From IMG/VR virus record IMGVR_UViG_3300012007_000016, positions 7,381 to 71,380 of that record: a stretch of 64,000 nt of DNA. One strand, written 5' to 3'. The first letter of the stretch is position 1. Each line of letters opens with the position of its first letter. Shown in pieces: positions 33,850 to 63,816 of the stretch. Position numbers and translations under genes: made by a program. The DNA comes from a virus. Its lineage: Duplodnaviria > Caudoviricetes. The notes below the pieces were generated by a model. The model saw only the letters and a program-made list of their open reading frames with translations, had not been told where the DNA came from and ran no database searches.

Positions 33850-33925
33850 ACAAAAATAGAAACTTTTTGTAAATTATTTGATATTTATTATTGAAAAGTG
33901 TTTAGTTTTTAACTATATTTTATAT

Positions 33926-35122
33926 ATGAAAGTGATTTTAAAGACATATAAGTACAGAATGTACCCAAATAAGGAGCAAGAACAAATGCTTGCAAGGTAT
34001 TTTGGGTCTGTTCGTTTTGTCTATAATCACTTCCTTGCTGAAAGAAAACAACAATACACAGAGAATGGAAAAAGCGATAATTACTATGCACAAGCAAGTA
34101 CACTTACCAAATTAAAGAAACAAGAGGAATACTTGTGGTTAAAGGAAATCAATTCACAGACACTTCAATTCGCACTTAGAAATCTTGAGACTGCATATAC
34201 AAACTTCTTTAGGGGTAATGCAAGATTCCCAAGATTTAAGGCAAAGAAGAACGGTGGTAGTTTTCATATACCACAACATTGTTTTATTGAAAATGGTAGG
34301 ATATATATTCCAAAATTTAAAGGTGGTATAAAGATAGTAGAACACAGACCATTCAAAGGTGGTGATGTTAGAAATATGACAATCTCTGTCACACCAAGCG
34401 GTAAATATTATGTTTCAATTTTAACCCAAATTTCATATGAACCATTGCAGAAAACCAATGCAAAGGTTGGTATTGACTTAGGGTTGAAAGACCTGGTAAT
34501 TACAAGTGATGGCAAGAGGTATTCAAGTAACAAATTCATCAAACATTACTCAAAGGAACTTGCAAAAGCGCAAAAGCACTTATCAAGGAAGCAGAAAGGT
34601 AGTAATAGTTGTGACAAGCAACGAATAAAGGTTGCAAGAATACAAGAGAAAATTCATAACTGTAGGTTTGACAAACTACATAAAATTAGTACTGACTTAA
34701 TCAGAAACTATGATGTAATCTGTTGTGAGGATTTAAACGTCAAAGGTATGCAAAGAAACCACAGACTTGCACAGAGTATATCAGATGCGAGTTGGGGAGC
34801 ATTCCTTTCAATGCTTACATATAAAGCGGTTATGAATGACAAACAAGTAGTGAAGATAGACAGATACTATCCATCTTCAAAAACTTGCCATTGTTGTAAT
34901 TATATAAAAGAAGACTTACAACTGAAGGATAGACAATGGGTTTGCCCTAATTGCGGAGAAGTTCTTGACAGAGACTTTAATGCTGCAATGAATATCCTTT
35001 CAGAAGGATTAAGAAATATATCGGCAGGAACTGTCGATTACACTGATGGAGCAGATGTAAGACCCTTTCAAGGGCAATCAACAATGAAGTCAGAAGCCCA
35101 CAAGTCTTCAGCTTGTGGGTAG
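33926..35122 (+). CDS. tnpB: TnpB RNA-guided endonuclease (IS200/IS605 OrfB)
   Basis: HTH N-terminus YKYRMYP; RuvC residues GIDLG, CEDL, DRDFNAA; CHCC...CPNC zinc finger. Confidence 0.95.
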   Translation: MKVILKTYKYRMYPNKEQEQMLARYFGSVRFVYNHFLAERKQQYTENGKSDNYYAQASTLTKLKKQEEYLWLKEINSQTLQFALRNLETAYTNFFRGNARFPRFKAKKNGGSFHIPQHCFIENGRIYIPKFKGGIKIVEHRPFKGGDVRNMTISVTPSGKYYVSILTQISYEPLQKTNAKVGIDLGLKDLVITSDGKRYSSNKFIKHYSKELAKAQKHLSRKQKGSNSCDKQRIKVARIQEKIHNCRFDKLHKISTDLIRNYDVICCEDLNVKGMQRNHRLAQSISDASWGAFLSMLTYKAVMNDKQVVKIDRYYPSSKTCHCCNYIKEDLQLKDRQWVCPNCGEVLDRDFNAAMNILSEGLRNISAGTVDYTDGADVRPFQGQSTMKSEAHKSSACG

Positions 35123-35435: not shown

Positions 35436-38400
35436 ATGGAAGATACAAATAGAGTATATAGAATTAGAACAACAGTTGGGGAAGATGCACCAAATGTGAT
35501 ACATGTTCCTCTTAAACAATCATATGATATGTTTGAAATACTTAGTCTTAAATTAGACCAAACAAATTCATATAAAACGTATGAAAGTGATTATGGTGTA
35601 ATTGTAGGACGTGTTACGGCAAATGGTGGTTTTGGCGTACCGAATGCAAAAGTAAGTATATTCATTGAAGTATCTGATGATGACGCACTTAAAGATAGAC
35701 TTCTATATAACTTTACTTCCACGTCTGATACTGATAATAATGGTGTTAGATATAATCTTTTACCTGACTATGTAGATGATGCATGTCACCAAGATGTTGG
35801 TACTTTTCCAAACAAAAGGCTTGTTCTTGATAATAATGACATAATTGAAATGTTCGACAAGTATTGGAAATATACTACTACAACAAACCATGCAGGTGAC
35901 TATATGTTATTTGGTATTCCAACAGGTTCACAACAGTTGCACGTTGATGTTGATTTAAGTGATTGTGGTATATTATCACAACGCCCACGTGACATGATTG
36001 GCAAAGGTTATAATGCCAACATGTTTGAAAGTCCGAATAAGTTTAAATCTTCTACAAACCTTAATTCACTTGCGCAAATAATTTCGCAAGATAGGGGGTT
36101 ATATGTTTACCCATATTGGGGAGATGTAAGTGACGGTGATGATAAATTCTCAATTACAAGATGTGATATTAACCTTGAATATAAATTTGAGAGTTATGCT
36201 GTCTTTATGGGTAGTATAGTAACCGATAAAGGTTCAAATGCTATTGGTAAGAACTGTACAGGAACTGAGCAAAATGGTAAAATGTCAGACCTTATTGCGG
36301 GTGAGGGTACTATTGAAATGATTAGGAAAACTATTGACGGTAAAGTTGAGGAATTTCCAATCATGGGTAACAGACTTATTGACGGTGACGGTGTTTGGTG
36401 TTACCAAATTCCTATGAATCTTGATTATGTTACAACTGATGAATTTGGCAATTTAGTACCAACAGATAATCCAGATAAAGGTATTGCAACAAGAACAAGA
36501 GTTAGGTTTAGGATATCTTTGGACGAAAACCCAAATGATGCAACAGCAAGAAAAAGAGCAAGATATCTTGTACCTAATAATCCAAGACTTGGTGAGGGTG
36601 AATTTGATGAAACACTTGAAGCAGACTATGAATTTGGCTCTGCAACAAGGGAAGAATCATATTGTGACATGTTTTGGAATAAAGTTTATACAGTTAAGAA
36701 CTATATTCCAAAATTGCAGAAAAACAGCAAGGAAACTAATAGGAAACACACAGGTATTAAGTTAATTAATCATTATGGTGATAATAACCCAATGCCATAT
36801 AATGCACTTACCATTAAGTTGAGTTTTACTTATCGTATTATTTGTGTAATAACAAAGGTAATTATTAATTTAATTGAGTTTGTAAATCAACTTCTTAGTA
36901 TTGTTAGTGCAATATTATGTTTGGTAATTAAGATACTTGAATTTCCTGCTGAGATTTTTGAGAAACATATGTGTTTCAAGATACCGGTGATTAATAAAAG
37001 AATATGTCCGTTTAAACCACTTGGAAAACTGTGGAGAAAAATGGTTTCGCCAATCACAGGTCTCATAAGGAAAATTATGCCAAATTGCATCGGTTTGTCT
37101 TCTGAATTTTGTGATGATGGTATTAATCAAGTTACATATTATCCTGGTTGTGGTTATTTCTTATTTAGTTTATTTAAGTTCTCTTCAATTGGTTTGGATT
37201 GTATTTGGGAAGAAACAAAGAAAAATCACACCAAAAATCAATTGAAAATATGTGAAAATGAGAAAAAATCACCAGAAGATTGTGAGATGAGTCTTACAGA
37301 ACCATCTAATGCAACTGCAATGCTTTATAACTGTATTGAAAATCAGTTGGCACAACAAAATGATGCCACTTCATTTAATTTTTATAATGATTGGGTGAAT
37401 GGTGTGCTCTATGCGCCTCTTTGGTATAGAAAAATAACACCGAAGAAAAGATACTTTTTCGGACTTTTTAAGAAAAAAGCAAAAGATGATTGGTGTTCTT
37501 CACAAAGAGAATATCCAGGAATGAGAATTTTACAACATTGTGTTGTTGAAAGGAAACCAGACGGTACATATACAAATTTTGATGGAACAGATGTTGACTA
37601 TATGAGGATTCAAGGTTATGACTGTAAGGGTAAATGTCATAAACAATATACTGAAGTAAAGGGAATGAATGGAGTAATTCATTCACAACAAACAATGTTA
37701 GGACAAACTGTATATTATTATAAGGCAGTTGAATATGATGCTTCATTACCCAAAAACCGTTATGTTTCTTCACAAAAAAATGGTGATATAAAATTTATGT
37801 TTGCTACTGATATTGTATTATTGGGTAGTTTAAATGAATGTGATACTCAAGGTATTCCACAATTTTTTAAATCACTTGAAAGTACAACATATAATATGCC
37901 AACAGACATTCTTTTTACTGATTATGATTTTATTTTGACAGTAAATGATACTACTGGTGAAAGTGAAAGAATGGAATATACTATAACAGACCTTGTTAAA
38001 ACTTCTGAAATGGCCGGTTGTGATTGGGGTAATCCTAATGAGTTTGATAAATATGATGGTGGTTTATTTTACAGTATTGGATGTTCAAGTGCAGGTATTA
38101 AACTTGATACTAAAAGTTGTGTAAATTTATCAAGAGTTTGTGAATATGGTGTTTCATTGGATGAAACAAAAGAAGTTGCTGACTTAGATAATCTGGAAGA
38201 AGCAAGTGACGAACAGATAGATGTTGATTCTAAATATTTCCAAAGACTTATTACTGATGGATTTATATCTTGGGATGAACTTTATAATTTAGATGAAAGG
38301 AGTATGTTTGCTACTTTAAACGGAAATAAACTTCATACTAAATTAAATAATAAGAATGGCTTATATGAGTATGATTTCCGTTACTTATATCCGGAGAATT

Positions 38401-41400
38401 TTGATGGTTCGTTAAAAGAAATAATGGAGCAAAGAACCAAAAGATATAGTGAGGATATAAATTACAAAAATAACTATAAATTAGAGGAAAAAAGTAGAGA
38501 TTATTATATTTTTAGAATGGGTAACGCACCTTATTATTATGATAAGGCTTGTTCTTTCCCACGTTATGAAAATTCATTCTATTTCTATTTTGGTTTGAAA
38601 GCCGGAAAAACAGCAATTGAAAAATTTAATTCAAAATATTTTGCGGAATGTATTAACGAAAATGTTGAAAATCAAATTGGTATCAAATTTAAGGCAAATA
38701 GTTGGTGTTCAATGATTGGTAACAATCAAAATGACGGTTATCTTGCTTTGGATTTTACATCAGTGGCAACACCTTATTCTTTATTAATCAATGGTGTTTC
38801 AAACGGTGAATATTCAATTGAAATAAATGATATAACGGAAGAAAAAATCATTTTTATAAATGATGTTAGTAAAAAACCTTCTTCATTGTCAGAATATGTC
38901 CAATTAAAGGGTGAATATGATACCGAGAGTGACATGTGGAGTTATAAATCAGATGGAATTACAATACCCATGATGGATAATGGCGGTTATCAAGCAGTTC
39001 TAACTGATAATGAGGGAAATATAACAGAGTTTACTTTTAATATATTAGGTACTTATTTGTCATATAAGTTGAATACAAACAACTTTGAGCAGCCAAATAA
39101 TGTACTGATGGAAATGTTTGATAATGATTATAATAAAATTGCAAGTGATAAAGAAGATTCTCACGCTGAAGATGATGAGTATAAAAGTTATAACAGAGAA
39201 ATCGGTGGTGTTGTAACAATTTATGACATTTTCATGAATGGTGAGAAGTTGGATAGTTATAAACTTACGTTGGAAGCAAAATACGGCACTCCATTATCTA
39301 ATAGTAATTATACTGGTGTTGATTTAATTTATAATAATGGTTCTATAACATATATTAAAGGCCAACCAACGTTAATGATACCGGATGTGCAAAGTAGTAT
39401 GGAACATTATGCATTTGGTTTACCAAAGGGTCGTGCAGAATATACAGTAACAATTACTGAATTATGTAATGGTATAGAAAGTGGTAACAGTATAAGTAAG
39501 GATTTTTTTGTTGATGAACCAATTCCATATAAAATGTATATTAATGATATTGATTATGATGTTATTAAACATTTTGATAATTATACTGGATGGAATTTAA
39601 GTGGCTCAATTTCTTCTCATGGTGCTTCAGAAGGTACATTAAATATGTCTAATCCTTGGTTTAAAACGGATAATATATATTATAATGAATATTTGATTAC
39701 AAATATTGAAAATGATTTAATAAATGAATTTATAGTTGAAAAAGATGACAATACTTTTCAAATATATGCTGTTTTAGAAAATGGAAATCAATATCAAGTT
39801 GATAGTCCTATAAGATTAAAAGAAGAATTTTGTACTAATAATAAAGGTCAAAATGATGTATATTATAACTGGGTTGATGACTATATTGTAAACGATGAAA
39901 ATATAAATTGGAGTGATTCTAATGACGTATATGAAAAAATAGACCAATTTATTACCGATGTTAACCGTGTTTTCAATTTACGTAAGGAATTACGTGAAAT
40001 GATGAAAGATACTTTCTTTTTAAACTGTGAAGATGATAGCAAAACAATACTTGTAAGAGGTAAAACTGATAAATTACCTTGTACGCAGACAATTGTTTAT
40101 CATCCTGAAAAGGCCGTTGAATATGAGAACTATAATGTATTGGATGGAAATTCTCTCATAGATGAAGATATTAATGAAATAACTGATATTCGTATACCAA
40201 CAATTTCATATAGAAGTAGTGAGAAGTATGGTGATGGCAGTGATAATGACGAACCATGTCTTGTAACTGTTGAAAATAGCAAAAAGAAACCATATTCATG
40301 TGGTATAATGAATAATAGCGGAATTAGTATTCCTAAAAAAGATAATGGTCAGCCTTTTGACTTTGTAGAACGTGACAATGCAAAATATATTAATCATTCT
40401 TCTACACAACATAATGATTTATTCAGTTTCCCAATTATTGATAAAATTTTGACAACTGATTATATTGCTTGGTCAGCATTTGTTAAAATGCCACAATACG
40501 GTTATGATAATAGCGGTAATTCGAGGGTAAACATCATTAGTATGAATGGTCTTTTATCTGGTGTTGTATTTAATGGTAATGTTGTTAACAATAGGTTTGA
40601 TACACAAACGTTAAATGATATTGAATTATTATTGAGTAATAACATATGTGATGAAACAACAACATATATTGAAAAACGTGTCATTTTGGGTTATAACTAT
40701 GAAGAAGTTGGAAGATGGGTGATTTCGTTTTTACGGAATATTAGTAATAATATAACAAGTGATACAATAAGTGCTTTAAATAGAATTTTGCCAATTTCAA
40801 TAACAGAAGAAAATATTGGAAATATATTCAATTCATTTACGGTTGATGGTGAAAATATCAAATATCAGAATACAAGTATTAGTATCCAAACGCTTATTAG
40901 TAATATTTTAAGTTTTACAAATTATATTACACTTAATGATAATAGTTTAGCAAACTATAGACAGCAATATGCGTTTGTTTTACCAATGGAAACAAGTTTA
41001 ATGTTGCAAGATGAACGACAATGTGGGACACAGGTAGAAATTGATGGTACAATGGCTGTTAAGTTGGCCGACACATCAGTTAATGATTGTCGTACTGGCG
41101 GTCAAAAAATACTTGAAGTAGATACTGATGTGGACACATATTATTCTATTTTTAAAACAGATATAAATGGAACCGGTTATCCATTGAACCTTTGTGAAAA
41201 CAGTGGTATATTATGGCAAATACCAAATCAAATATATGGCATATACAGTCAACCACAATCACAAAACCTTTTCTCTTATCAAATGAAAACCAAATATTTC
41301 AGAGGGGAAGGAAATTTAATAGATACCAATTTCAAATCACAAGTTGCAATTGAAACTGAGGGCGAAGAAGAACAATTCGAAGATACAAAAGGATATGGTA

Positions 41401-44400
41401 CAACAGGCAAATTTGTACCAGAAAATAATTTTTCATACCCAATTTTCATCGTTGGTGAAAATGAATATAATGTAAGAGCATTAAGTCCGGTTTATGATTA
41501 TTCTAATGTGCTTGCCTTGGTTAAATTTGGTATTTTGGAACGCAAGGAAAGCGTACAAACAGGCGGTGATACCGAGGGAGCAGAAGCAACAACAGAAATA
41601 CAGACAATAAAAGATTATAAGTTTGGCGTTGCAATCAAAAAGTCTGATGATGATTATCAGCAACAATTTTATCTTGATAACTATGAATATACTTTGTCAG
41701 CAATTTGTAATGTTGACAGTATTAATAGGATTGAAGTATCTCAAGGTACGTTATTTGCTCCTGGACAATTCTTGTTTACAACAATAACGGAAGCATTGTA
41801 TAAAACATTGAAATCAAAAATGAATCCGTTTGGCTTGTTGCAACTTATTCCAAACACTACGGTTACTGCATTTGACTATACAAATTTGAAACATATTTGT
41901 GGAATCAACATGGAAGATTTTGAAGAAACAAAATGGTATACTGTTTCATGGTATGCAAATATTCCTGACAATTTACCGGCAAATGAAGCAAATGGTGGTA
42001 TTTTGTATAAACAAAATTATTTTGATTACATCGAGTTTAATTATGAGGAAGGCGATGAAGTAGAACCAATGAATTGTGAACCGGGAAGAACACTTGGTTT
42101 TGCATTTTTGGGTTGGTCAGAAAATGAACCAAATAAAAATGCTATTGTAACACCGATTACTACGGCAACCGAGAGTAAAATATATTTTGCTAATTGGGAC
42201 ATACCGTTACCGAAGATTATTGTTCGTTTCCTTGATAGTGACGGTACAACAGTGCTTGAAACACAACAAATAGAAGAAGGTGGAGTAACAAATGGTCCAA
42301 CTGATACATCACTTTCAGAGTATAGTTGGTATCTCAGTAGTGACGCAACTCAATCAGAAGTTGAGTTCCCACAAACAATTACACAACCAACGGATTATAT
42401 TAAGGTTAAAGAATTTACAGTTAATTGGTATGATACTGACGATACACTTGAGCCACCTAAGTTCACTGTACATTTCCGTCTTACGGAAAATGACACACAA
42501 GATATGGACACACAAGAAATAACGGCAGGTGAAAAAGTTTCATTGCGTGGTGAATGTGTAAATTATACTTGGTATGTGATGGGTGATACTGAGAAGAAAC
42601 AAGTCCAATTCCCATATACCGTTAATAGTGATATTACATTTATTGCACACAAGAAGTATAAGGTGAAATGGGTTGATAATGGTGAACAAATACCACCTTC
42701 AGGACAAGAAGAGGACGTTTATGTTTTCGAAAGTATTAGCCCAACTCAGACAACAATAGCATATGATGTTTCACATACTAATTTTGTAATTAAAACAACA
42801 TTGAATGGCTATTTGCATAATTTCACGGCAACCGTTACACAAGGAGAAGATTGGCTAAGTGTCGAGAACGTTGGAAGTGCTGATGCACAAAATGGTACAT
42901 TGACCCTTAAAGTAATGTCCTATGCTAATACAAACCATGAAAATAGAACAGGTATTTTAACATTGGTACAAGATGATAGTAATAATACAATTACTTTGCA
43001 AATTACACAAGAGGGTTTGCCTCAAACAGATGGAATAATTAACGTAAGGGTAAAAAATTCCAGAACAAGTGGTGTACCAATAGATAGTGCTCAAATTACA
43101 TTCAAAGTAAATGGTGCTGATATAATAGCCGGTGTTGGTGGTGGTATTACAAGTGGACATGACCGTGTTACAACAATTACAATCAATGAAGAACAAAAAG
43201 GACAGGATATCATAGCAGATAGTGTTTACATACAGCCACAAATGATAAATGCCAATTTTGTCCAAACACCAAATCCTTATAAATATAATGGAGTAGGACA
43301 AGACGGTGCTATTGAATTGTTCATTGAGATACTTGATGGTGAAAAACAAACAGAAAATCAATATTTTGAGCCAATTACGGAAAATACGACTGGTGCACCC
43401 TCTCTAATATTAAGACAATATGGATTGTCAACCGATAATAATTTTAGACTTGCAGCAAATTTTGATAAAGACAAATATACATTTAAAAAATGGCCATTTA
43501 GTACTGCCGGAATAGTTTATGCTGAATTTGAAAAAAATAATACAGGTGGCATAACGGTGAGCGGAAGCAGGTCTGACTATTCAATGCTTGATGATTATGG
43601 TATGTTTTTTATGAGGACAAGAGGATATGGTTCATGGCAAGGAGGTAGTACAAGTAATGCCTCATATGGAGGAACTTTTACAGTTTCAACAGTAAATGAC
43701 ACTTCATTACAGCGAAAAGTAGAATTTGATGGAAGAACTGATGAAAATAATGTTATATTATTACGTGGTGAAATAGTTAGTAAAGCATTAAGAGTTCCAT
43801 CGAGTGGTTTCAGTGGTACTATACAATTATGGCAGTATCCATATACATTTGATACTGATGTCTTTTTTACAGACCCTAAAATGATTTATATAACTAAGAG
43901 TGGTGAACAAGAACTAACGGTAACAACCATTGATAATAATATTTTGCAAGTAGAAGGTATTAGTGGAAATATACAGAACATCAATGATAATTGTTTAGAT
44001 TATGAATTTTCATATAATATTGAAAAAAATAATGTTAATGACTATAAATATCATATTATAGTATTAAGTAATAGCGCACTTAATACTACTGCTTTGAAAT
44101 ATGGGTTTGATGGAAGTAGGTCGGGGGTAATGTTACATTTCATACAAGAATATAGAGTTAAAAATAGGATATATTATGGAAATGGCTTTATTAATTCCAA
44201 AACATTTGATGACAATTATAATCTAACACAAACAGAGAAATATTATTATCATTCTTGGTTCGAGACATGTTCAAGTAAAATATTAACAGAAGACAGTTTT
44301 ACTATTGATATACAAGCAACAACAGTTGCATATCCTAATTCTGATGTTTTCGAATATGAAATTAGTACCAGTAATGGTGACAACTTAGAAATTTTAGACA

Positions 44401-44480
44401 ATAACTATGTATGGGGTGATGAAACATATACAATTGTTAAATTACCTTCAGGAAATAGGGCTATATTTACCAAGAAATAA
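35436..44480 (+). CDS. Giant structural/tail fibre protein A (3014 aa); C-terminal B-repeat-like, BACON-like, Ig-like and tip domains
   Basis: N-terminal GVIVGRVTANGGFGVPNAKVSIF; GFAFLGWSE...YFANW InlB B-repeat-like unit; DWLSV...GTLTL...RTGILTLVQ...LQITQ BACON-like unit. Confidence 0.7.
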   Translation: MEDTNRVYRIRTTVGEDAPNVIHVPLKQSYDMFEILSLKLDQTNSYKTYESDYGVIVGRVTANGGFGVPNAKVSIFIEVSDDDALKDRLLYNFTSTSDTDNNGVRYNLLPDYVDDACHQDVGTFPNKRLVLDNNDIIEMFDKYWKYTTTTNHAGDYMLFGIPTGSQQLHVDVDLSDCGILSQRPRDMIGKGYNANMFESPNKFKSSTNLNSLAQIISQDRGLYVYPYWGDVSDGDDKFSITRCDINLEYKFESYAVFMGSIVTDKGSNAIGKNCTGTEQNGKMSDLIAGEGTIEMIRKTIDGKVEEFPIMGNRLIDGDGVWCYQIPMNLDYVTTDEFGNLVPTDNPDKGIATRTRVRFRISLDENPNDATARKRARYLVPNNPRLGEGEFDETLEADYEFGSATREESYCDMFWNKVYTVKNYIPKLQKNSKETNRKHTGIKLINHYGDNNPMPYNALTIKLSFTYRIICVITKVIINLIEFVNQLLSIVSAILCLVIKILEFPAEIFEKHMCFKIPVINKRICPFKPLGKLWRKMVSPITGLIRKIMPNCIGLSSEFCDDGINQVTYYPGCGYFLFSLFKFSSIGLDCIWEETKKNHTKNQLKICENEKKSPEDCEMSLTEPSNATAMLYNCIENQLAQQNDATSFNFYNDWVNGVLYAPLWYRKITPKKRYFFGLFKKKAKDDWCSSQREYPGMRILQHCVVERKPDGTYTNFDGTDVDYMRIQGYDCKGKCHKQYTEVKGMNGVIHSQQTMLGQTVYYYKAVEYDASLPKNRYVSSQKNGDIKFMFATDIVLLGSLNECDTQGIPQFFKSLESTTYNMPTDILFTDYDFILTVNDTTGESERMEYTITDLVKTSEMAGCDWGNPNEFDKYDGGLFYSIGCSSAGIKLDTKSCVNLSRVCEYGVSLDETKEVADLDNLEEASDEQIDVDSKYFQRLITDGFISWDELYNLDERSMFATLNGNKLHTKLNNKNGLYEYDFRYLYPENFDGSLKEIMEQRTKRYSEDINYKNNYKLEEKSRDYYIFRMGNAPYYYDKACSFPRYENSFYFYFGLKAGKTAIEKFNSKYFAECINENVENQIGIKFKANSWCSMIGNNQNDGYLALDFTSVATPYSLLINGVSNGEYSIEINDITEEKIIFINDVSKKPSSLSEYVQLKGEYDTESDMWSYKSDGITIPMMDNGGYQAVLTDNEGNITEFTFNILGTYLSYKLNTNNFEQPNNVLMEMFDNDYNKIASDKEDSHAEDDEYKSYNREIGGVVTIYDIFMNGEKLDSYKLTLEAKYGTPLSNSNYTGVDLIYNNGSITYIKGQPTLMIPDVQSSMEHYAFGLPKGRAEYTVTITELCNGIESGNSISKDFFVDEPIPYKMYINDIDYDVIKHFDNYTGWNLSGSISSHGASEGTLNMSNPWFKTDNIYYNEYLITNIENDLINEFIVEKDDNTFQIYAVLENGNQYQVDSPIRLKEEFCTNNKGQNDVYYNWVDDYIVNDENINWSDSNDVYEKIDQFITDVNRVFNLRKELREMMKDTFFLNCEDDSKTILVRGKTDKLPCTQTIVYHPEKAVEYENYNVLDGNSLIDEDINEITDIRIPTISYRSSEKYGDGSDNDEPCLVTVENSKKKPYSCGIMNNSGISIPKKDNGQPFDFVERDNAKYINHSSTQHNDLFSFPIIDKILTTDYIAWSAFVKMPQYGYDNSGNSRVNIISMNGLLSGVVFNGNVVNNRFDTQTLNDIELLLSNNICDETTTYIEKRVILGYNYEEVGRWVISFLRNISNNITSDTISALNRILPISITEENIGNIFNSFTVDGENIKYQNTSISIQTLISNILSFTNYITLNDNSLANYRQQYAFVLPMETSLMLQDERQCGTQVEIDGTMAVKLADTSVNDCRTGGQKILEVDTDVDTYYSIFKTDINGTGYPLNLCENSGILWQIPNQIYGIYSQPQSQNLFSYQMKTKYFRGEGNLIDTNFKSQVAIETEGEEEQFEDTKGYGTTGKFVPENNFSYPIFIVGENEYNVRALSPVYDYSNVLALVKFGILERKESVQTGGDTEGAEATTEIQTIKDYKFGVAIKKSDDDYQQQFYLDNYEYTLSAICNVDSINRIEVSQGTLFAPGQFLFTTITEALYKTLKSKMNPFGLLQLIPNTTVTAFDYTNLKHICGINMEDFEETKWYTVSWYANIPDNLPANEANGGILYKQNYFDYIEFNYEEGDEVEPMNCEPGRTLGFAFLGWSENEPNKNAIVTPITTATESKIYFANWDIPLPKIIVRFLDSDGTTVLETQQIEEGGVTNGPTDTSLSEYSWYLSSDATQSEVEFPQTITQPTDYIKVKEFTVNWYDTDDTLEPPKFTVHFRLTENDTQDMDTQEITAGEKVSLRGECVNYTWYVMGDTEKKQVQFPYTVNSDITFIAHKKYKVKWVDNGEQIPPSGQEEDVYVFESISPTQTTIAYDVSHTNFVIKTTLNGYLHNFTATVTQGEDWLSVENVGSADAQNGTLTLKVMSYANTNHENRTGILTLVQDDSNNTITLQITQEGLPQTDGIINVRVKNSRTSGVPIDSAQITFKVNGADIIAGVGGGITSGHDRVTTITINEEQKGQDIIADSVYIQPQMINANFVQTPNPYKYNGVGQDGAIELFIEILDGEKQTENQYFEPITENTTGAPSLILRQYGLSTDNNFRLAANFDKDKYTFKKWPFSTAGIVYAEFEKNNTGGITVSGSRSDYSMLDDYGMFFMRTRGYGSWQGGSTSNASYGGTFTVSTVNDTSLQRKVEFDGRTDENNVILLRGEIVSKALRVPSSGFSGTIQLWQYPYTFDTDVFFTDPKMIYITKSGEQELTVTTIDNNILQVEGISGNIQNINDNCLDYEFSYNIEKNNVNDYKYHIIVLSNSALNTTALKYGFDGSRSGVMLHFIQEYRVKNRIYYGNGFINSKTFDDNYNLTQTEKYYYHSWFETCSSKILTEDSFTIDIQATTVAYPNSDVFEYEISTSNGDNLEILDNNYVWGDETYTIVKLPSGNRAIFTKK
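42222..43338 (+). repeat. Copy 1 of a ~1.1-kb direct repeat shared by the two fibre genes (partner 60694-61747)
   Basis: Patchy near-identity; identical 50-bp (43203-43252 = 61612-61661) and 72-bp (43267-43338 = 61676-61747) tracts. Confidence 0.95.
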
Positions 44481-44481
44481 C

Positions 44482-45426
44482 ATGTATACGGAAAAGAAAT
44501 TTGCAAATAATTATGCATTAGCTGGCTCAAAAGCATTATTATATAATGTACATCATGATAAATTTTTCGATACAAACGGAAAAATAAAAGATGAATATGT
44601 TAATAATATTATTGATATTGGTTTTGAATGGAAACAATCAACAATACAAACTTGGACAAGGGTTTCTCTTAAAAAAACAACAAAAACCTATATTTCTTTA
44701 ATAGACGAACTGAAAAATTATAATGATGAAATTGCAGAACAGTATATGTGCGAACGTTATAGTCCTAGTAAAATACGTGGTGTTTATCCAACAAGAGTAT
44801 TGATAAAAAATCTTATGCAAGGGATGACATATAGTGTACGTAGTTATTATATAACTTCTGAACAAACAGAACCGGTGTATTATAATGAACAGACAATACA
44901 GTTATTTAATAGTGTTAGTACAATAGCATTTTCAGAACCAAACTTTACAACAAGTGCTAAAAACACAGATAATATTAGTGAAGAAGAACTTCAGTCTTTT
45001 ACTGATACAGTTCTTCAATGTTGCAGCGAAGTGGTTGAGATTTATAAAATGTTTGCACCTGGTTATACAACACAAGTAAGTCTTACAATTGACTATGATA
45101 GTAACGGAAATTGGGCAGCAAGTGCTGGTAGTGGTCATGTTACATATAATTCAGCATATAGAAATGAGTCTTCAAATGGTGTCAGAAGTGTTTTAATACA
45201 CGAAATGGCACATAATTTTATGTTAAAAGACAATAATGCTCCAAACCCCACATATAAAGATAAAATAATAAAATTTATGGAATTTGCAACAAATGCACCA
45301 TATGCAATGTGGAAATGGCAAGCCTCACATAATTATCCTGTAATTAGTAGTGCAAGATATACTTATATGGATGATTGCCTTGTTGTTGCTGCTTGTCAAT
45401 TAAGTCAAGAAATGCATAATAGTTAA
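44482..45426 (+). CDS. FN3-like + HExxH zinc metallopeptidase-like protein (copy 1, 314 aa)
   Basis: IKNLMQGMTYSVRSY FN3-like motif; HEMAH at 45199; KFMEF downstream; paralog of 62872-63816; ATG 1 nt after the fibre A stop. Confidence 0.7.
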   Translation: MYTEKKFANNYALAGSKALLYNVHHDKFFDTNGKIKDEYVNNIIDIGFEWKQSTIQTWTRVSLKKTTKTYISLIDELKNYNDEIAEQYMCERYSPSKIRGVYPTRVLIKNLMQGMTYSVRSYYITSEQTEPVYYNEQTIQLFNSVSTIAFSEPNFTTSAKNTDNISEEELQSFTDTVLQCCSEVVEIYKMFAPGYTTQVSLTIDYDSNGNWAASAGSGHVTYNSAYRNESSNGVRSVLIHEMAHNFMLKDNNAPNPTYKDKIIKFMEFATNAPYAMWKWQASHNYPVISSARYTYMDDCLVVAACQLSQEMHNS

Positions 45427-45439
45427 AAATGATTAAAAC

Positions 45440-47083
45440 ATGGCAGAAGTAATACTTAAAGAAGAAGATGTTATTGATGGTGAAAAAGCACGTTGGCCGT
45501 ATGCAAATGATTATGATGAACCTTCAAAAGATGGTTATTCCTTTGAGGGTTGGAAATATAATAATAGGATTTATCGTAAAACTGAATATCAAAACGAGCA
45601 AAACAATCCATTTGGTCCAATCAATAATGATAGTACAATTTCGGCAATGTGGGATAAAATGCAAATACATGCGGATACTAATCACACATTGATTTCCGGT
45701 GACGGTGATTCAAATACTGACATGACCAAACTTACAGGTTGGCTTACATCAGATGGTGGTAAATTTACCGGTGAAAATGTTTTTATTTATGATGAACCGC
45801 TTAATGAGGGCGAAAATAGAATAGTTTGGAGTACTGAAGGTAGTGGTATTGAAAATAACAAGTCTTTTGTTCTTAAAAAAGCATTACCAAATGATATAAA
45901 TCAATCAAGATATTATAGGTTTAAAGCAAAAACATCACAATATGGTGGTATGGAGAGTGATGTTATTGAAATAGAACAGGTTGGTGTTGACCAAACAATT
46001 TTACCGGATTTTGATTTCCTTACATTTAGATATAATTGGTCTGATACTGACGGTCATGATTTAGATACTGGAACATTTGTTGTCGGAAGTAATATACCTA
46101 TTGGCAGTGACGGTAAAACATTGCAAGATTATCCTGTTGGTTTTTCTTGTAAGGGGAGTAGTGGTATTGACCCTGACTATTCTACAAGCAGTAGTAATCC
46201 AGAACTTTTTAATGAAGTTAGTAAATATATTAAAGGTGGTGGGGATAATTTACAATCAGGAAATGAAACAGCACTTGTTAATTGGAAAGAAATATGTAAT
46301 AGAGATTTAATTTCACAAGGAATAAACAAGATATATTGTGAATTATTTGCTAATTGGTACGGAGAAAGAAGAAATGGTAATTGCAACGTAACATTTTCAA
46401 CATTCAGAACAAATAGTGGAAATGGCAGTATGCAATTGGATAGAGACGCAGAAGGTAAGACAACATTTACTTTTTCACCAACGGGTGATACACAACTTGT
46501 TACAGAATTAACAATTAGTGGCAATGTTTATGCTTCTTCTGCACAAAATTCAAGTAGTGTTAATAAATCTTTGACACAGCCTTATTATTCTCATGTTGCA
46601 ACTCTTGTATATGATATAAGAAGCAAAACAGCAAAACTCATAAATACAATGGATAATAATCCGACAGGAAGAAATTTACGTTATCTTGCTTCTGTTAATA
46701 ATATTACTCAAGAACTTGAAGGCAGTAGTGTTAGTTTCAGTTTTAAGTTTGAATATGAATATAATGATACAAGTGAAGAAACATTTACAATTGATAGAAA
46801 TATACTCTATATAAATGGTGTTGCAAATGAGATATCATTAATGAATACTGACGAAGAAATTTCAAATTCAATGAAATACATTAAACAAGGTGATGAGGGT
46901 GGATGGGTAAACCTCGTTTCTGTTAATAGAAAGAGTGATGGAAGTATTAGTTCAATAACATTAAAAATAAATTCGGTAAATACAACAGGAAATTTAAGAG
47001 AGATGGATTTATCATTAGGAAAAACTATTAATGATGCATATTGTAGTTTACGTATAGAGATATATCAAAAGTCACAAACATAA
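45440..47083 (+). CDS. Putative adhesin/fibre accessory protein 1 (B-repeat-like N-terminus, DLD/GGDN domain, BACON-like C-terminus)
   Basis: ARWPY..GYSFEGWKY..NPFGPI; DGHDLDT, GGDNLQSGNE, ANWYG shared with 47105-48874. Confidence 0.6.
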   Translation: MAEVILKEEDVIDGEKARWPYANDYDEPSKDGYSFEGWKYNNRIYRKTEYQNEQNNPFGPINNDSTISAMWDKMQIHADTNHTLISGDGDSNTDMTKLTGWLTSDGGKFTGENVFIYDEPLNEGENRIVWSTEGSGIENNKSFVLKKALPNDINQSRYYRFKAKTSQYGGMESDVIEIEQVGVDQTILPDFDFLTFRYNWSDTDGHDLDTGTFVVGSNIPIGSDGKTLQDYPVGFSCKGSSGIDPDYSTSSSNPELFNEVSKYIKGGGDNLQSGNETALVNWKEICNRDLISQGINKIYCELFANWYGERRNGNCNVTFSTFRTNSGNGSMQLDRDAEGKTTFTFSPTGDTQLVTELTISGNVYASSAQNSSSVNKSLTQPYYSHVATLVYDIRSKTAKLINTMDNNPTGRNLRYLASVNNITQELEGSSVSFSFKFEYEYNDTSEETFTIDRNILYINGVANEISLMNTDEEISNSMKYIKQGDEGGWVNLVSVNRKSDGSISSITLKINSVNTTGNLREMDLSLGKTINDAYCSLRIEIYQKSQT

Positions 47084-47104
47084 AGAAAAAAAAAATAAAA
47101 TTAT

Positions 47105-48874
47105 ATGGCAAATATAAAACTATTTACAGAGAAAATAAAAGGAACAGGTAAAAAGGCACGTTGGCCTTATGATACTTCTCTCAGTAGTTCAGAGTTGTAT
47201 AACACTGTTATGACCAACCTTAAACAACAAAAAGTCGGGTATATTTTTGAAGGTTGGAGATATAATGGGCAAATATATGCTGAACCTTTTGATGATGAAA
47301 GTACGAATCCTTTTGGTCCGATTACTGAAAATACTGACATATATGCAGTATGGTCTAAAATAAATGTTTATTGTACAACTGATAAACCTGTTGTTGTGTA
47401 TGAAGGTGATACTGTTAAAGTGTTTTATCATGCTGTTACAACAGAGATTGTTACTTCAAATGAAGTGAAATTATATGTTGACGAGGCAAATACAACAGTA
47501 TCTTATACAAGAAGTCCAAATGAAACCGTTGAGGGCAATGAAAGAGTCTGTACATTTACTATTAACGAAAATACAAGTCAAGACGGTAAAAACCTTGTTG
47601 TATATGCTGAGTATAAAGGCGTTAGGTCAGAAAACTTGATTATTTATCAAAATAACCCATATGAGTATGTAATTCCAGATTCCGATTATTTTGTATTTAA
47701 TTATGAATGGAATTTTGATGATAAAGGAACTTCTACAACTACTGATGATGTTGGTGATGGAATAGACCTTGATTCATTAACAGTTATATATGTAGAAGAT
47801 GCACAAGGAAATGTGGTTAACAAATCATTTACAGCTATTCCGGTTGGATATAGAAGCGGATATGCAAATAAGTCTTATAGTCATTATCAAGTTGCTTCAC
47901 AAAATGGTTTACTTTGTATGAAACATGGTGGTGATAATAGACAAAGTGGTGCAGAAGGTGCTATTATATGTTTAACAAACATTGCCAATTCTGGTGAAGT
48001 AAATAATTTGGAAACAATAAAAATTAAAATTTATGCAAACTGGTATGGTAGAAGAATGGATGGTAATATGACTATAAATTGTAAAGGATATAAATCAAAA
48101 GAAGGAAGTAGTGGAAGATATGAAGATGATATTATAGAAGTTAGTCATGGTAATTGGAAAACATTTGAGGTTAATGAGAATAATTGTGAAGTATCATGGG
48201 AAGGATTTTCAGAAACAATGAACATTAAGGCTCATGGTTCAGATAATGCACGTTTTGAAAATGAATTTATTGAGCATATAGGCACTATATATAGCAATGT
48301 TTGTACAGTGTCATTCAATATTGGTACTGGACGTAAAAGTTATTTGAATAGAACTGAAGATAATGGTATTAATCGTGATACAAAACCGGTCTATTTTAAA
48401 AATGACCGTGATAATGGAACACAATTTACTTTATCAACACAAAGGCAAGCATTTGATTTAAATAACATTTATTTTGATTACTGGGGTGAAAATGGGTATA
48501 TGTTTACTAATGATAAAGACTACATATATTTAGAATACTACTACATTTATGTAAAAAAAGATGACCCAACACAATTTATTCATTCAGAGGATTATAATGC
48601 ATTGACAAACGAAGAAAAAAATAATTATACAAAAAAACAACCAATAACAATTAAGAAAGAAGATTTAAATAAAATTTTTACTCTTGATGAAACTGCATTC
48701 CTTGAAAATTTAACTTTTACACAAGGTTCAGATAAAAAATTAAATATTAGTTTTACATTAACTGATAGTAATGGTAAAAAACAAGATGTTGATTTCTTTT
48801 TTATTAAATTTTTTGATGATGGAATTCGTCCGGCCGTAGAAGAACGAGTTGTTATTTTACAACAAGATAATTAA
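47105..48874 (+). CDS. Putative adhesin/fibre accessory protein 2, tandem paralog of 45440-47083
   Basis: ARWPY..GYIFEGWRY..NPFGPI; DGIDLDS, GGDNRQSGAE, ANWYG. Confidence 0.6.
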   Translation: MANIKLFTEKIKGTGKKARWPYDTSLSSSELYNTVMTNLKQQKVGYIFEGWRYNGQIYAEPFDDESTNPFGPITENTDIYAVWSKINVYCTTDKPVVVYEGDTVKVFYHAVTTEIVTSNEVKLYVDEANTTVSYTRSPNETVEGNERVCTFTINENTSQDGKNLVVYAEYKGVRSENLIIYQNNPYEYVIPDSDYFVFNYEWNFDDKGTSTTTDDVGDGIDLDSLTVIYVEDAQGNVVNKSFTAIPVGYRSGYANKSYSHYQVASQNGLLCMKHGGDNRQSGAEGAIICLTNIANSGEVNNLETIKIKIYANWYGRRMDGNMTINCKGYKSKEGSSGRYEDDIIEVSHGNWKTFEVNENNCEVSWEGFSETMNIKAHGSDNARFENEFIEHIGTIYSNVCTVSFNIGTGRKSYLNRTEDNGINRDTKPVYFKNDRDNGTQFTLSTQRQAFDLNNIYFDYWGENGYMFTNDKDYIYLEYYYIYVKKDDPTQFIHSEDYNALTNEEKNNYTKKQPITIKKEDLNKIFTLDETAFLENLTFTQGSDKKLNISFTLTDSNGKKQDVDFFFIKFFDDGIRPAVEERVVILQQDN

Positions 48875-51818: not shown

Positions 51819-53686
51819 AATATAGAGTAAACACTAAAAAATTTGATAAGACAAAAGTTGAGTTAAACATTGAGAATATATCATTTGTTGACTTGGCAAA
51901 TCTCGTTGATGAAGAAAATGAAACATTAGAATATGATGGTTTTAACAAAGATAAAATCATGTTAATTTGTGAATGTAAGGATATTGATAAAGTTAACAAC
52001 GGTGGTTTCGTTAAAACTGAGAATACATTGTATCTTGATTATGGTACTGAGCAAGTACCCGAAATAACCGAATATAATTTTGTAAAGGACTATCAAATTA
52101 GTGGTGTAAATAAAAACAATAAAAGTTTTTCCATCTATATTGATAAATATTTTACTCTTAATCAAGATAAGATTGAAAAAATTATATATAATGACACTTT
52201 AGGTATTGAGGAAAGCCAAAATATTTTTTTACATTTCAATGATTATCATTATTTTGATGTGAATGATAAAGAGATACCAATATATTTTAACACATTTGAC
52301 GAGAATGGTGAATTAACTGTTAAAACTATTTTATTTGGATATTATTCACAGAAAGTTTTGGTTGGTTCTATTGATAATTTTTACAATGCGGATGCGGATT
52401 TTCTATTTAAGAATATATTTGGCATTGATATAAATGTTGATGGTCTTAATGAAAAATATATAGAAGGTGATTTAAGTGGAATTGAAATATATCGTGATAA
52501 TTTCTTATTTGGCGAGAAAACAAATTATACATTTAGTTTTGAAAGACCTGTTGTTAATATAAATGTCCCAATTGTTAATACATTTGAGACAAATTTAATA
52601 CAAATGGAACTGCTTAACGAATATTTTGTAGAAGCAGAAAAGAAAAAAGCAATTAATAGGATTACCGATATTGAAAAGGATGTATATTATCCTTGCATAC
52701 CAAATAATAATAGTTTTGATGATGTTTATACGATAAAATTTAATCTTCATTTCAGAGAACATAGAGGTGACGATTGGCTTGTTGAGAATGAAAGTTTTTG
52801 GAATTGTATTGAACAATCGTTTGATGAAAATAATAAGCCAATAGAGAGTAGTGCAAAAATTATCAATACCCCACAGAAAATGACAACAGATAATAGGTCC
52901 GATTTATTGAGTTTTCTTGGTTTTACAAATGAAGATGTACACTTTCAAAAAAATAAACTTAAAAAATCATTTTTACGTTTAATGTATTTTGATTCAACAA
53001 ATCCTGCAAATCAGAATATGATTGGTTATTCGACTATTTTCTTTGATACGGGTGATATGTTTGCCAAATATATCAAATATAACGAAGAAAAAAATTACGT
53101 TGCTGTTAACATGAATAAAAATCAATATGGTGTATATAATATTTCTGAAGGAAAAACAGGAATAAGGGTTAACAGGGAAAGTTTTAATGAAAAGACAAGA
53201 TTAAGTTCGCAGTTTGTGGTGAAAAGTAAAAACACTTCAAAGGCTTCAAGTGAGGGATTTTATCTTTATATTTGGAAAGATAACAGCACACCTTTGCCAC
53301 AAGATTTATATATGAAAGTTGAGTTTAATCACGCTGGTTATGGAAGGACAATACCCTTTATGATGCCTTATTGGGATTCTAAAAAGTGGGGCGGTAAAAT
53401 TGGCATTAAAACCTTTGACGAAATTTTAGAAGATTGGAAAGATATAAAAGAAGAAGAACTTGACCAACATGGTAGAGTATCTTGGATACATAATACAGAT
53501 GGACATTATGGCATAAGACAATATACGAAATTTTCTTATATACATCTTAAATATATGTATGATAAAGAAACCGACAAACATATTTACTATCTTGACCCAG
53601 ACACTTATGGAAATATTACTTATCCAACAGGCGATGATGGTAACAAATATATTGAAATAAACTTATATGAAGCAAAAGTAGAGTAA
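51812..53686 (+). CDS. Hypothetical structural protein (624 aa)
   Basis: Long coupled ORF; TAATG stop/start overlap with the next gene. Confidence 0.65.
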   Translation: MLEYRVNTKKFDKTKVELNIENISFVDLANLVDEENETLEYDGFNKDKIMLICECKDIDKVNNGGFVKTENTLYLDYGTEQVPEITEYNFVKDYQISGVNKNNKSFSIYIDKYFTLNQDKIEKIIYNDTLGIEESQNIFLHFNDYHYFDVNDKEIPIYFNTFDENGELTVKTILFGYYSQKVLVGSIDNFYNADADFLFKNIFGIDINVDGLNEKYIEGDLSGIEIYRDNFLFGEKTNYTFSFERPVVNINVPIVNTFETNLIQMELLNEYFVEAEKKKAINRITDIEKDVYYPCIPNNNSFDDVYTIKFNLHFREHRGDDWLVENESFWNCIEQSFDENNKPIESSAKIINTPQKMTTDNRSDLLSFLGFTNEDVHFQKNKLKKSFLRLMYFDSTNPANQNMIGYSTIFFDTGDMFAKYIKYNEEKNYVAVNMNKNQYGVYNISEGKTGIRVNRESFNEKTRLSSQFVVKSKNTSKASSEGFYLYIWKDNSTPLPQDLYMKVEFNHAGYGRTIPFMMPYWDSKKWGGKIGIKTFDEILEDWKDIKEEELDQHGRVSWIHNTDGHYGIRQYTKFSYIHLKYMYDKETDKHIYYLDPDTYGNITYPTGDDGNKYIEINLYEAKVE

Positions 53687-62868: not shown

Positions 62869-62871
62869 AAT

Positions 62872-63816
62872 ATGACAGACATAAAAGCAATTGCAAATAG
62901 AAACAGTATTGTTTTAAAGATAGACACGTCATTTTTTAAAACAAGGTCAAAAACAACTTATTCATGGGCTTATGCTGATTATACTGTAAATACTTCTGGA
63001 CAATATTCAGATATAGTAAATCTTGGGGTTTGTTATTATACCACAAACAGTAATCAAGTTACTTATATACCTTTTGATAGTACACAAATGTTACATTCAA
63101 GCGATTATAAAACACATTCCGTAACATCAACATGTGTTAAAGTTGGTGATTTAACTGTGAAAGTGAGAATGGTCCCAACTTTTCCTATATTTTGTCTATT
63201 AGAAGGTCTTACAAGTGGTACTACCTATCATATAGGTGGGTATTATGAATCTTCCAATTCATCTAAAACACCTTTAGGATATAGTGTAGTAACTACAAAA
63301 CCGTCAAGAGATACATCAGAGACAGGATTAAAATTTAATGACGTTAATTTTAATACTGATAGGATTGATACAACAGAAAAAGAAAATAAAGCAACATTAA
63401 TGAAAAATGATTTGCAACAAATATTACCATTAGTGACTGATATGTTTAATGATACAACTAATGTAAATTTCGAATATTCACCAAAGATTACTTATGAATC
63501 TTCTAATTGGTATGCCAACAGTGGAATGAATTTTAATTGTTATAGTTATAATACAAGTGATATAGAAAATCTGAGAAGCAGTACAATTCATGAGTTGGAA
63601 CATAATCATTTTAAGTCATATATTAACAGATTTATAAATAATTTTAGTACAGAGCCTAAAGTTATTAAATTTATGGAATTTGTCACTGATTGTGAACGTG
63701 CTACATGGGGACAGATACAAAGTCATTTTTACCCAATAATCAGTTCTGCTAGATATGATTATTTGGATGATTATTTAGTGTGTATGGCTACAGATGTAGA
63801 TTATTTATTTGAATAA
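62872..63816 (+). CDS. FN3-like + HExxH zinc metallopeptidase-like protein (copy 2, 314 aa)
   Basis: LEGLTSGTTYHIGGYY FN3-like motif; HELEH at 63589; KFMEF...SH.YP.ISSARY.Y.DD.LV shared with 44482-45426. Confidence 0.7.
   Translation: MTDIKAIANRNSIVLKIDTSFFKTRSKTTYSWAYADYTVNTSGQYSDIVNLGVCYYTTNSNQVTYIPFDSTQMLHSSDYKTHSVTSTCVKVGDLTVKVRMVPTFPIFCLLEGLTSGTTYHIGGYYESSNSSKTPLGYSVVTTKPSRDTSETGLKFNDVNFNTDRIDTTEKENKATLMKNDLQQILPLVTDMFNDTTNVNFEYSPKITYESSNWYANSGMNFNCYSYNTSDIENLRSSTIHELEHNHFKSYINRFINNFSTEPKVIKFMEFVTDCERATWGQIQSHFYPIISSARYDYLDDYLVCMATDVDYLFE

Follow-up and report, generated by a model that had tools for sequence, protein, structure and literature searches.

The 64,000-nucleotide (nt) stretch analyzed here, called the window throughout, comprises bases 7381-71380 of the 71,380-base virus record IMGVR_UViG_3300012007_000016, in which a terminal repeat was not found. 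Its source is an uncultured large tailed phage of ruminant guts, and the window is a fragment of that phage's genome. It holds two giant genes, A and B, each of which ends in a homologous tip domain and is followed directly by a gene (pepA and pepB, respectively) for a protein with an FN3-like half and a small HExxH zincin-like domain. Tip and zincin-like gene appear to be an old, jointly inherited module, and the stalk that precedes each tip appears to be a younger block with its own history. The features of the two loci are as follows.

35436-44480, + strand: gene A (open reading frame, ORF), 3014 amino acids (aa); giant scaffold, repeat/BACON stalk and tip
42222-43338, + strand: exchanged stalk block of A; two repeats of ~65-80 aa, a BACON-like domain and one further beta-rich domain
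42732-43013, + strand: BACON-like domain of A, residues 2433-2526 (Pfam)
43341-44480, + strand: tip domain of A, residues 2636-3014 (alignment with relatives)
44482-45426, + strand: pepA, 314 aa; FN3-like N-terminal half and small HExxH...E zincin-like domain
45199-45213, + strand: HEMAH motif of pepA, residues 240-244, with invariant H, E and H
45280-45282, + strand: Glu267 of pepA in KFMEF, candidate third zinc ligand, invariant in alignments A1 and A3
56746-62868, + strand: gene B (ORF), 2040 aa; a different scaffold, about six repeats, BACON stalk and tip
60694-61747, + strand: exchanged stalk block of B, partner of 42222-43338
61240-61416, + strand: BACON-like domain of B, residues 1499-1557 (Pfam, alignment to A)
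61748-62868, + strand: tip domain of B (tip hidden Markov model, HMM, over B1660-2037)
62872-63816, + strand: pepB, 314 aa; second FN3-like and zincin-like gene
63589-63603, + strand: HELEH motif of pepB, residues 240-244 (alignment)
63676-63678, + strand: Glu269 of pepB in KFMEF (alignment)

The part that A and B have in common is only their last ~760 residues. BLASTP returned a single colinear match between them (A2251-3012 with B1305-2036; 47% identity over 787 columns, E 8e-178); the other matches are only extra copies of the ~65-80-aa repeat (B1081-1274, 24-26% identical to A's repeats), and A1-2250 and B1-1060 have no BLASTP similarity. A preliminary description of this DNA had proposed just such a portable unit of fibre end and enzyme, carried on unrelated N-terminal parts. 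Those parts stayed unrelated at the BLAST level, the C-terminal strings that it quoted were found in both translations, and the divergent tip of ~370 aa that it placed at both protein ends is homologous by BLASTP.

Scans with the zincin alignment gave 12 JGI metagenome loci (prefix L) and 2 IMG/VR loci, both among those 12. Of these 12 and the two copies in the window, ten have a readable upstream ORF (A, B, L003, L004, L005, L006, L007, L008, L011 and L013); L009 and L012 were left out as too short, L010 as TAG-recoded with a short upstream flank, and L014 for an in-frame stop. At all ten loci, the ORF that immediately precedes the zincin gene has a tip homologue at its end. Tip stop and zincin ATG overlap as ATGA in six and are set apart by a 1-3-nt spacer in the other four, including the window's own pairs, in which the pepA ATG lies 1 nt past the TAA of A and the pepB ATG lies 3 nt past that of B (pepA has 314 aa if its start is the ATG at 44482). 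The two genes are predicted to be translationally coupled at all ten loci, and the tight coupling of a 314-aa HExxH gene to each giant gene, as first described, holds.

The pair was found on at least three phage backbones, and the unit sits on differing carriers. Tip-fused giants of A type are A itself, P0207 (2787 aa), P0208 (2913 aa) and P0209 (2849 aa; metagenome proteins carry the prefix P), L003 is an A-type fragment whose start is 45% identical to A2091-2254, and B carries its tip on the B-type giant scaffold. At L005, a stand-alone tip gene (471 aa) lies two genes after a portal gene (E 2e-145). Stand-alone tip genes of 390-413 aa also occur at L006, L007, L008 and L011; that of L008 comes right after a collagen-like tail-fibre gene of 139 aa (PHROG tail fibre, E 3e-18), and the zincin gene there is the last of a + strand run. 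In relatives, the tip is usually its own gene; here it is fused to two unrelated giant proteins. At L004 (8570-8628), the A orthologue (2366 aa) and the tip (a 468-aa ORF, called as the 449-aa gene P0059) share ~58 nt that each reads in its own frame, whereas scaffold and tip are one ORF in P0209 and A; the overlap could reflect a genuine split, a frameshift or programmed slippage.

The tip family has no match in Pfam, PDB, PHROG or NCBIfam. Its conserved motifs (alignment A2) are RIPSSG, FPYTF, HFIQE..NRIYYG, SSKI and YxWG, and its best-conserved parts are the C-terminal half and the extreme C-terminus. Tip A is 56-57% identical to the L004 tip and about 29-32% to tip B, the nearest relative of which is the L013 tip (41-42%). 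A search with the tip profile found 14 stand-alone proteins of 180-564 aa, 4 of them reported on contigs equal in size to contigs with zincin homologues. In run X6, a 3895-nt contig is 97% identical over 45440-47095 (the gene after pepA) and ~80-86% in three tip patches, and at an 85% threshold it skips 44479-45240, most of pepA, with its overall length about unchanged; a second X6 contig carries the window allele (4 differences in 1225). As the pattern of a single metagenome contig, this is a weak hint of hot-spot behaviour of the tip.

We compared the histories of the two components with FastTree trees and pairwise identities over the ten tip/zincin pairs, a small sample in which most of the relatives are short metagenome contigs. 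Tip and zincin identities correlate closely (r=0.90 over 45 pairs; 0/9999 label permutations reach this r), and the nearest neighbour agrees in nine of the ten pairs. The exception is L005, with a tip nearest to L004 and a zincin nearest to A, L004 and A belonging to the same clade. Incongruence of the tip and peptidase trees had been named at the outset as something to look for; the trees are congruent, with 6/7 internal splits in common and support of 0.52 for the disagreeing split. Both contain the clades {A, L004, L003, L005}, {B, L013} and {L006, L007, L008, L011}. In identity, tip A and pepA stand at 56% and 51% to L004, tip B and pepB at 42% and 46% to L013, and the A and B copies at 32% (tip) and 26% (zincin) to each other. 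Because both trees separate them, the A and B copies are not each other's closest relatives in either component. Tip and zincin appear from these comparisons to be an old module, inherited as a pair since before these phages diverged. The A/B contrast aside, such congruence is also expected from plain vertical descent and is not proof of physical cognacy.

The stalk has a different history. Similarity between the two loci at the DNA level is found only at 42222-42644/60694-61110 (78%) and 42720-43338/61129-61747 (81%); being limited to the stalk, it leaves the tips and the zincin genes alike only at the protein level. At its tip-side (3') edge the block has two tracts without a mismatch, of 50 nt (43203-43252) and 72 nt (43267-43338), and directly after 43338/61747 identity steps down to ~40% in a MAFFT profile. 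These step-like edges and exact tracts point to recombination, not to gradual decay. Relatives separate the three parts of the protein further, as shown by their identities to A in scaffold (A1801-2262), stalk (A2263-2635) and tip (A2636-3014).

P0207: scaffold 98%, stalk 93%, tip 73%
P0208: scaffold 47%, stalk 91%, tip 72%
P0209: scaffold 54%, stalk only in its first 90 aa (45%), tip 52%
B: scaffold none, stalk 69%, tip ~29%

In P0209, ~75 residues separate scaffold from tip, and L004 lacks A2332-2635, so that both keep just the first stalk repeat (A2263 to ~2352); the stalk of L003 differs, with ~30% identity to A across stalk and tip. The near absence of the stalk from P0209 and L004, and the 91% stalk of P0208 beside a 47% scaffold, indicate that it is optional and moves between phages independently of its flanks. 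As P0207 illustrates, tips in turn appear to change faster than the scaffold or to swap independently of it. Our results show that the stalk is a younger, separately recombining block, exchanged between both loci and among related phages, and that the whole is a three-part mosaic of scaffold, stalk, and tip plus zincin.

The blocks 42222-45426 and 60694-63816 are thus colinear and homologous, as had been claimed, but they are not one duplicated unit, the stalk (~80% at the nt level) being younger and separate. Had the whole 3.2-kb block of stalk, tip and zincin been duplicated once here, with very fast divergence of tip and zincin afterwards, the colinear order and the length of exactly 314 aa of both zincin genes would follow directly, and fibre tips are generally known to evolve fast. 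That history is nevertheless very improbable: the tip and zincin of A are closer to those of L004, and the tip and zincin of B to those of L013, than to each other; the A orthologues of L004 and P0209 are without the stalk, and that of P0208 combines a 91% identical stalk with a 47% identical scaffold; and the identity edges with their exact tracts indicate recombination. We rejected a single recent duplication on these grounds, namely the tree positions of the copies and the regional identity profile.

Within the stalk, the BACON-like assignment holds in part. When the segment 41436-43340 was scanned alone, the BACON match in A (PF13004) scored 26.4 bits against a cut-off of 25, BACON_2 (PF19190) scored 22.3 bits, and PDB chain 2mqc (105 residues) matched the BACON residues of A at E 0.002. 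The corresponding match in B (20.4-22.4 bits) is under the cut-off of 25, though the block is 69% identical to A and its BACON is homologous to that of A by alignment; the B stalk has no match in the PDB. Two other domain labels of the preliminary description were confirmed by no library: 'B-repeat' (PF09479), which has no match in either protein up to E 0.1, and 'Ig-like'. A 58-nt stretch is repeated within gene B (60229-60286 and 61036-61093, 93%), one copy in an upstream repeat unit and the other in a unit inside the exchanged block; on the basis of this repeat, the protein repeats of B are still undergoing homogenization at the DNA level.

The scaffolds themselves are without relatives in the libraries. 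Orthologues of A occur at L004 (55% identity over A1-2331) and in P0209 (65%), P0208 (60-68%) and P0207 (94%), and the A scaffold has no match in PHROG, NCBIfam, lenient Pfam or deposited phages (tblastn). The B scaffold likewise gave no match in deposited phages (tblastn), PHROGs, NCBIfam or lenient Pfam, and an orthologue of B was not found in the two related virus records searched. Judging from their neighbourhood and from the company of the tip in L008, A and B are probably tail or baseplate proteins. An extended hydrophobic run (…LSFTYRIICVITKVIINLIEFVNQLLSIVSAILCLVIKILEFP…) spans residues ~455-505 of A (window 36798-36950) and is conserved at L004 as well; unusual in fibre proteins, it may be a membrane-inserting segment.

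The zincin proteins form a broad family of their own. BLAST gave 31% identity between pepA and pepB across the final 224 aa (E 5e-23), and the nearest relative of pepB is the L013 protein (46-48%). A collection of 5.8 billion proteins holds 53 homologues of pepA of 172-550 aa, all metagenomic, including the 94% homologue P0006; just one of the 53 is named in its source ('hypothetical protein'), and none of the full-length relatives has a precomputed Pfam domain. A profile of 37 members (25-63% identity to pepA), searched against 1.84 billion representatives, gave 476 matches at E up to 1e-3, 105 at 1e-10 and 64 at 1e-30. The strong matches are full-length, at ~275-340 aa. Most of the weaker ones cover only profile positions ~100-165, many times per protein and at E down to 4e-22, and all five sampled multi-stretch matches are fn3-repeat proteins above the Pfam cut-off. 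The family profile also matches fibronectin chains (E 0.028-0.045), and a direct Pfam fn3 match on pepA or pepB was not obtained. Together, the fn3-repeat and fibronectin matches suggest an FN3-like domain in the N-terminal half.

The second half carries the presumed metal site. H240, E241, H244, F265, M266, E267, F268, H283, Y285 and P286 are invariant in 37/37 profile members. Among 115 family sequences examined, HE..H is present in 109 and HE..H-(8-45)-[FLIMV][FLIMV]E[FYW] in 99. The six without HE..H are P0017 (an N-terminal match only), P0118 (an N-terminal fragment), P0113, P0141, P0173 and P0191, the last three of which match just part of the zincin profile. The KFMEF glutamate, 22-24 residues after the second histidine in the window's two copies, is by its position a candidate third metal ligand, and we take the resulting HExxH...E pattern to be that of gluzincins. 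Pfam matches are all to zincin families and all below cut-off: SprT-like (8/37 members, best E 2.5e-4), BSP (18.5 bits against 23.8), M78, M48, M60 (PF13402; 16.4 bits against 25.8, in 1/37 members), WLM and eCIS_core. The best PDB chains for a profile of the catalytic ~150 aa are projannalysin (4jix, E 0.08) and the WLM protease Wss1 (5jig, E 0.19), and PHROGs and NCBIfam give no match to the zincin protein.

Four family members are extended at the C-terminus. P0134 continues into BspA-type leucine-rich repeats (247 bits), P0090 into Fib_succ_major/Lcl_C lectin-like domains (below cut-off; Lcl_C also occurs, below cut-off, in P0141 and P0191), P0046 into a domain opening with the motif LPNGYTQVEYI, and P0081 into a complete tip domain (residues 314-671, tip HMM E 2e-54). 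The zincin homologue at L010 (968-1930, on a 2.9-kb contig) contains eight in-frame TAG codons read as Gln, one of them at the conserved Q of AACQV; this read-through places the family in TAG-recoded phages too. P0046 is of the same TAG-recoded type, fused to its further domain. A pepB-type homologue at L014 (2210-3244; N-terminus MTNIKAIANRRSLVLKID...) contains a single in-frame stop, located after HExxH and before KFMEF, which may mark a pseudogene, a sequencing error or recoding.

We propose that the zincin has protease activity, docks on the tip and works together with it on the virion, and we put the probability of this reading at roughly 45%. The zincin would be made in step with its tip, dock on it through the N-terminal FN3-like part and travel with the virion as the most distal part of the fibre, in the position that gp38 occupies on the T2 fibre. 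Tip and stalk would hold a surface glycan or protein while the zincin cut a proteinaceous surface layer (an S-layer, surface glycoprotein or mucin-like coat) and so opened access to the cell, as a protein-cutting equivalent of the tailspike depolymerases. Its catalysis, its docking, its place on the virion and its substrate are all predicted from sequence. That the protein is an enzyme, and an exposed one, is suggested by a motif conserved beyond the rest of the protein, by the FN3-like domain and by the C-terminal fusions to binding modules. FN3 domains are often spacers in extracellular enzymes. Adhesin-type fusions of this kind would be expected of a distal fibre component, not of a cytoplasmic helper.

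Several points weigh against a tip-docked protease. Every peptidase-family match is below its curated cut-off, and P0113, a full-length family member, is without HExxH. The fusions are four predicted metagenome proteins, which may be read-through artefacts. No library assigns the scaffolds of A and B, and their tail role is putative, deduced from context. A fibre served by a dedicated chaperone of the gp37/gp38 or Stf/Tfa type would be just as likely to show co-variation and adjacency, and the C-terminal conservation of the tip would suit a surface for docking or folding no less than a receptor binder. In the main alternative, possible if doubtful, which accounts for the coupling, the co-variation and the conserved C-terminal half of the tip equally well, the zincin is a dedicated chaperone-protease that acts in trans to fold, and perhaps trim, the tip in the infected cell and is absent from the virion: a trans version of T4 gp38/gp57A, of lambda Tfa or of the self-cleaving C-terminal chaperone domains of fibres. 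Such a helper would be encoded, as here, directly downstream of the fibre end, coupled to it at every locus and co-varying tightly with it; the tip would be most conserved in its C-terminal half and at its C-terminus, as for a chaperone or cleavage site, and processing would need a strictly conserved active site. Pfam, PHROGs and NCBIfam, however, give no similarity to Tfa, gp38 or S74, the FN3-like domain and the leucine-rich-repeat, lectin-like and tip fusions are hard to explain in a cytoplasmic helper, and no truncated or processed form of the tip is visible in sequence.

The zincin might instead act on the cell wall or envelope during entry or lysis, or be an ejected effector, in either case only sharing an operon with the tip and not paired with it. 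Small HExxH enzymes are found in phage tail and lysis modules and on the spikes of contractile systems (compare VgrG2b of the type VI secretion system), and at L008 the zincin gene does end the + strand run. We consider this improbable, given that a tip homologue adjoins the gene at 10/10 loci on three backbones, six of the ten with ATGA overlaps, that the trees are congruent despite two copies in one genome, and that a zincin-tip fusion exists (P0081). Two enzymes per genome, each diverging in parallel with its tip, would also be unexpected for a general lysin. The tip-docked protease can be extended, more tentatively, to a family of proteolytic 'depolymerases' in which each tip holds a cognate FN3-zincin that binds and cuts a host surface (glyco)protein or gut mucin, with the BACON stalk as an exchangeable, glycan-holding handle. 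Such a device would be a split, virion-borne counterpart of the BACON/M60-like peptidases of Bacteroidota, and a particle would bear two, of different specificities; this wider picture is doubtful at present.

The arrangement is of a known kind, a fibre end with a co-varying partner and an enzyme at a fibre end; the tip and zincin families themselves match nothing described in the libraries and papers searched. T4/T2 gp37-gp38, lambda Stf-Tfa and Mu/P2 fibre-Tfa each consist of a fibre end and a downstream partner gene. As in gp37-gp38 and Stf-Tfa, a variable fibre C-terminus is followed by a small co-varying gene, the pair there being exchanged as a unit and the T2-type partner sitting on the tip as the distal adhesin. 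Unlike gp38 and Tfa, the partner here is an FN3-like and HExxH zincin-like protein with an invariant metal-site motif and is without homology to them in Pfam, PHROG or NCBIfam. To our knowledge, hardly any enzymes that cut proteins have been documented at the receptor-binding end of a phage, and glycan depolymerases dominate. Virion depolymerases and branched tailspikes (reviews PMC5380687 and PMC6966330; phiKp24, PMC9700779) offer a second likeness: an enzyme at the receptor-binding end that breaches a surface layer, modules exchanged between phages and several fibre ends per particle. Known depolymerases are overwhelmingly glycan-cleaving and lie within the spike polypeptide, in contrast to the candidate protease-type zincin described here, which is encoded by a separate coupled gene.

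BACON domains occur in tail-type proteins of crAssphage and of diverse gut phages, including contigs from cow and sheep rumen, according to the sections consulted of PMC6949934, in which the word 'peptidase' has 0 occurrences. Unlike the BACON arrays of crAssphage, the stalk described here has a single BACON copy, in a phage that is not crAss-like by its baseplate genes. Nakjang et al. reportedly associated M60-like/enhancin peptidases with BACON domains in Bacteroides in 2012. That system resembles ours in combining BACON with an HExxH-(8-28)-E zincin in the gut (the spacing here is 22 residues, H244-E267). It differs in that BACON and zincin are here on two polypeptides, that BACON is outside the conserved module and that the M60 match is below cut-off. 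DUF4157 (eCIS_core), a small HExxH domain of unclear role in extracellular contractile injection systems, is also tied to a machine derived from phage tails and to variable cargo in the parts of PMC8213781 consulted; it is toxin-associated there and fibre-tip-associated here, and its Pfam match reaches E 0.0038 in 2/37 members. Minigluzincins, SprT and WLM proteins (4jix, 5jig) give the best, non-significant matches, which cover the helix-sheet-HExxH region, and come from unrelated biological contexts. If the zincin acts on host envelopes, it would add a new category of host-range determinant and would supply proteases specific for surface proteins. The mosaic of scaffold, stalk, and tip plus zincin, with its exact-match edges, offers a clear natural example of fibre-end re-targeting that would be useful to host-range prediction in rumen viromes.

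At least half of the sampled words of 43341-45426 were found in 11 rows of metagenome runs, labelled goat, bovine or sheep gut metagenome or plain (gut) metagenome, one of which is perhaps the source sample; the ten non-source rows represent eight studies, one of them also the source's study. Each of the four runs examined over 39500-48500 contains contigs that are 95-99% alike. At E up to 1e-30, the zincin family comprises at least 64 clusters at 50% identity. It was found in 0 of 185,579 prokaryote reference genomes (GTDB), and the stalk-tip-pep block, pepA and pepB in 0 of 50,697 deposited phage records (at megablast and tblastn sensitivity). Full-text searches of the literature brought up no account of a fibre tip coupled to an HExxH gene.

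The window has a G+C content of ~30%, and every long ORF lies on the + strand. Its PHROG matches, two of them listed here, identify a complex tailed phage.

641-2314, + strand: baseplate hub (PHROG match)
31616-33643, + strand: gp6-type baseplate wedge subunit (PHROG match)

PHROG matches also include a UvsX-like recombinase, an exonuclease, a DnaB-like helicase and NrdD. CheckV put the completeness of related virus records at 21% (74.5 kb) and 66%, and the window and these records are probably fragments of very large genomes. A crAss-like origin was rejected on the matches to baseplate hub and wedge, UvsX, DnaB and NrdD; the crAss-like framing of the preliminary description is at odds with these matches and with related fragments estimated to be 21% and 66% complete. 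Between the baseplate wedge gene and gene A, and thus within the phage structural module, lies a transposase (33878-35119, + strand; PHROG 506, E 4e-135, full-length match). The gene order after it is A, pepA, six large ORFs, B and pepB.

Two adjacent + strand ORFs, 45440-47083 (547 aa) and 47105-48874 (589 aa), both match PHROG 24956. Each opens with a unit of ~80 aa resembling the N-terminal end of the separate tip ORF at L004 (37% and 31%, respectively), and the 547-aa ORF has a weak match to the Listeria-Bacteroides repeat (E 0.036); the two may be further fibre ends with a common attachment unit. L004 is without ORFs of this size between its zincin gene and a 977-aa ORF. At window 47710-47755, the same 8 letters replace these 44 bases in contigs of 4/4 runs, and the window's own allele was not seen in those four runs. 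A 575-aa ORF at 53686-55413 (+ strand), in the same gene block, matches the carbohydrate-binding module CBM_5_12 at 26.5 bits, against a Pfam cut-off of 26.2.

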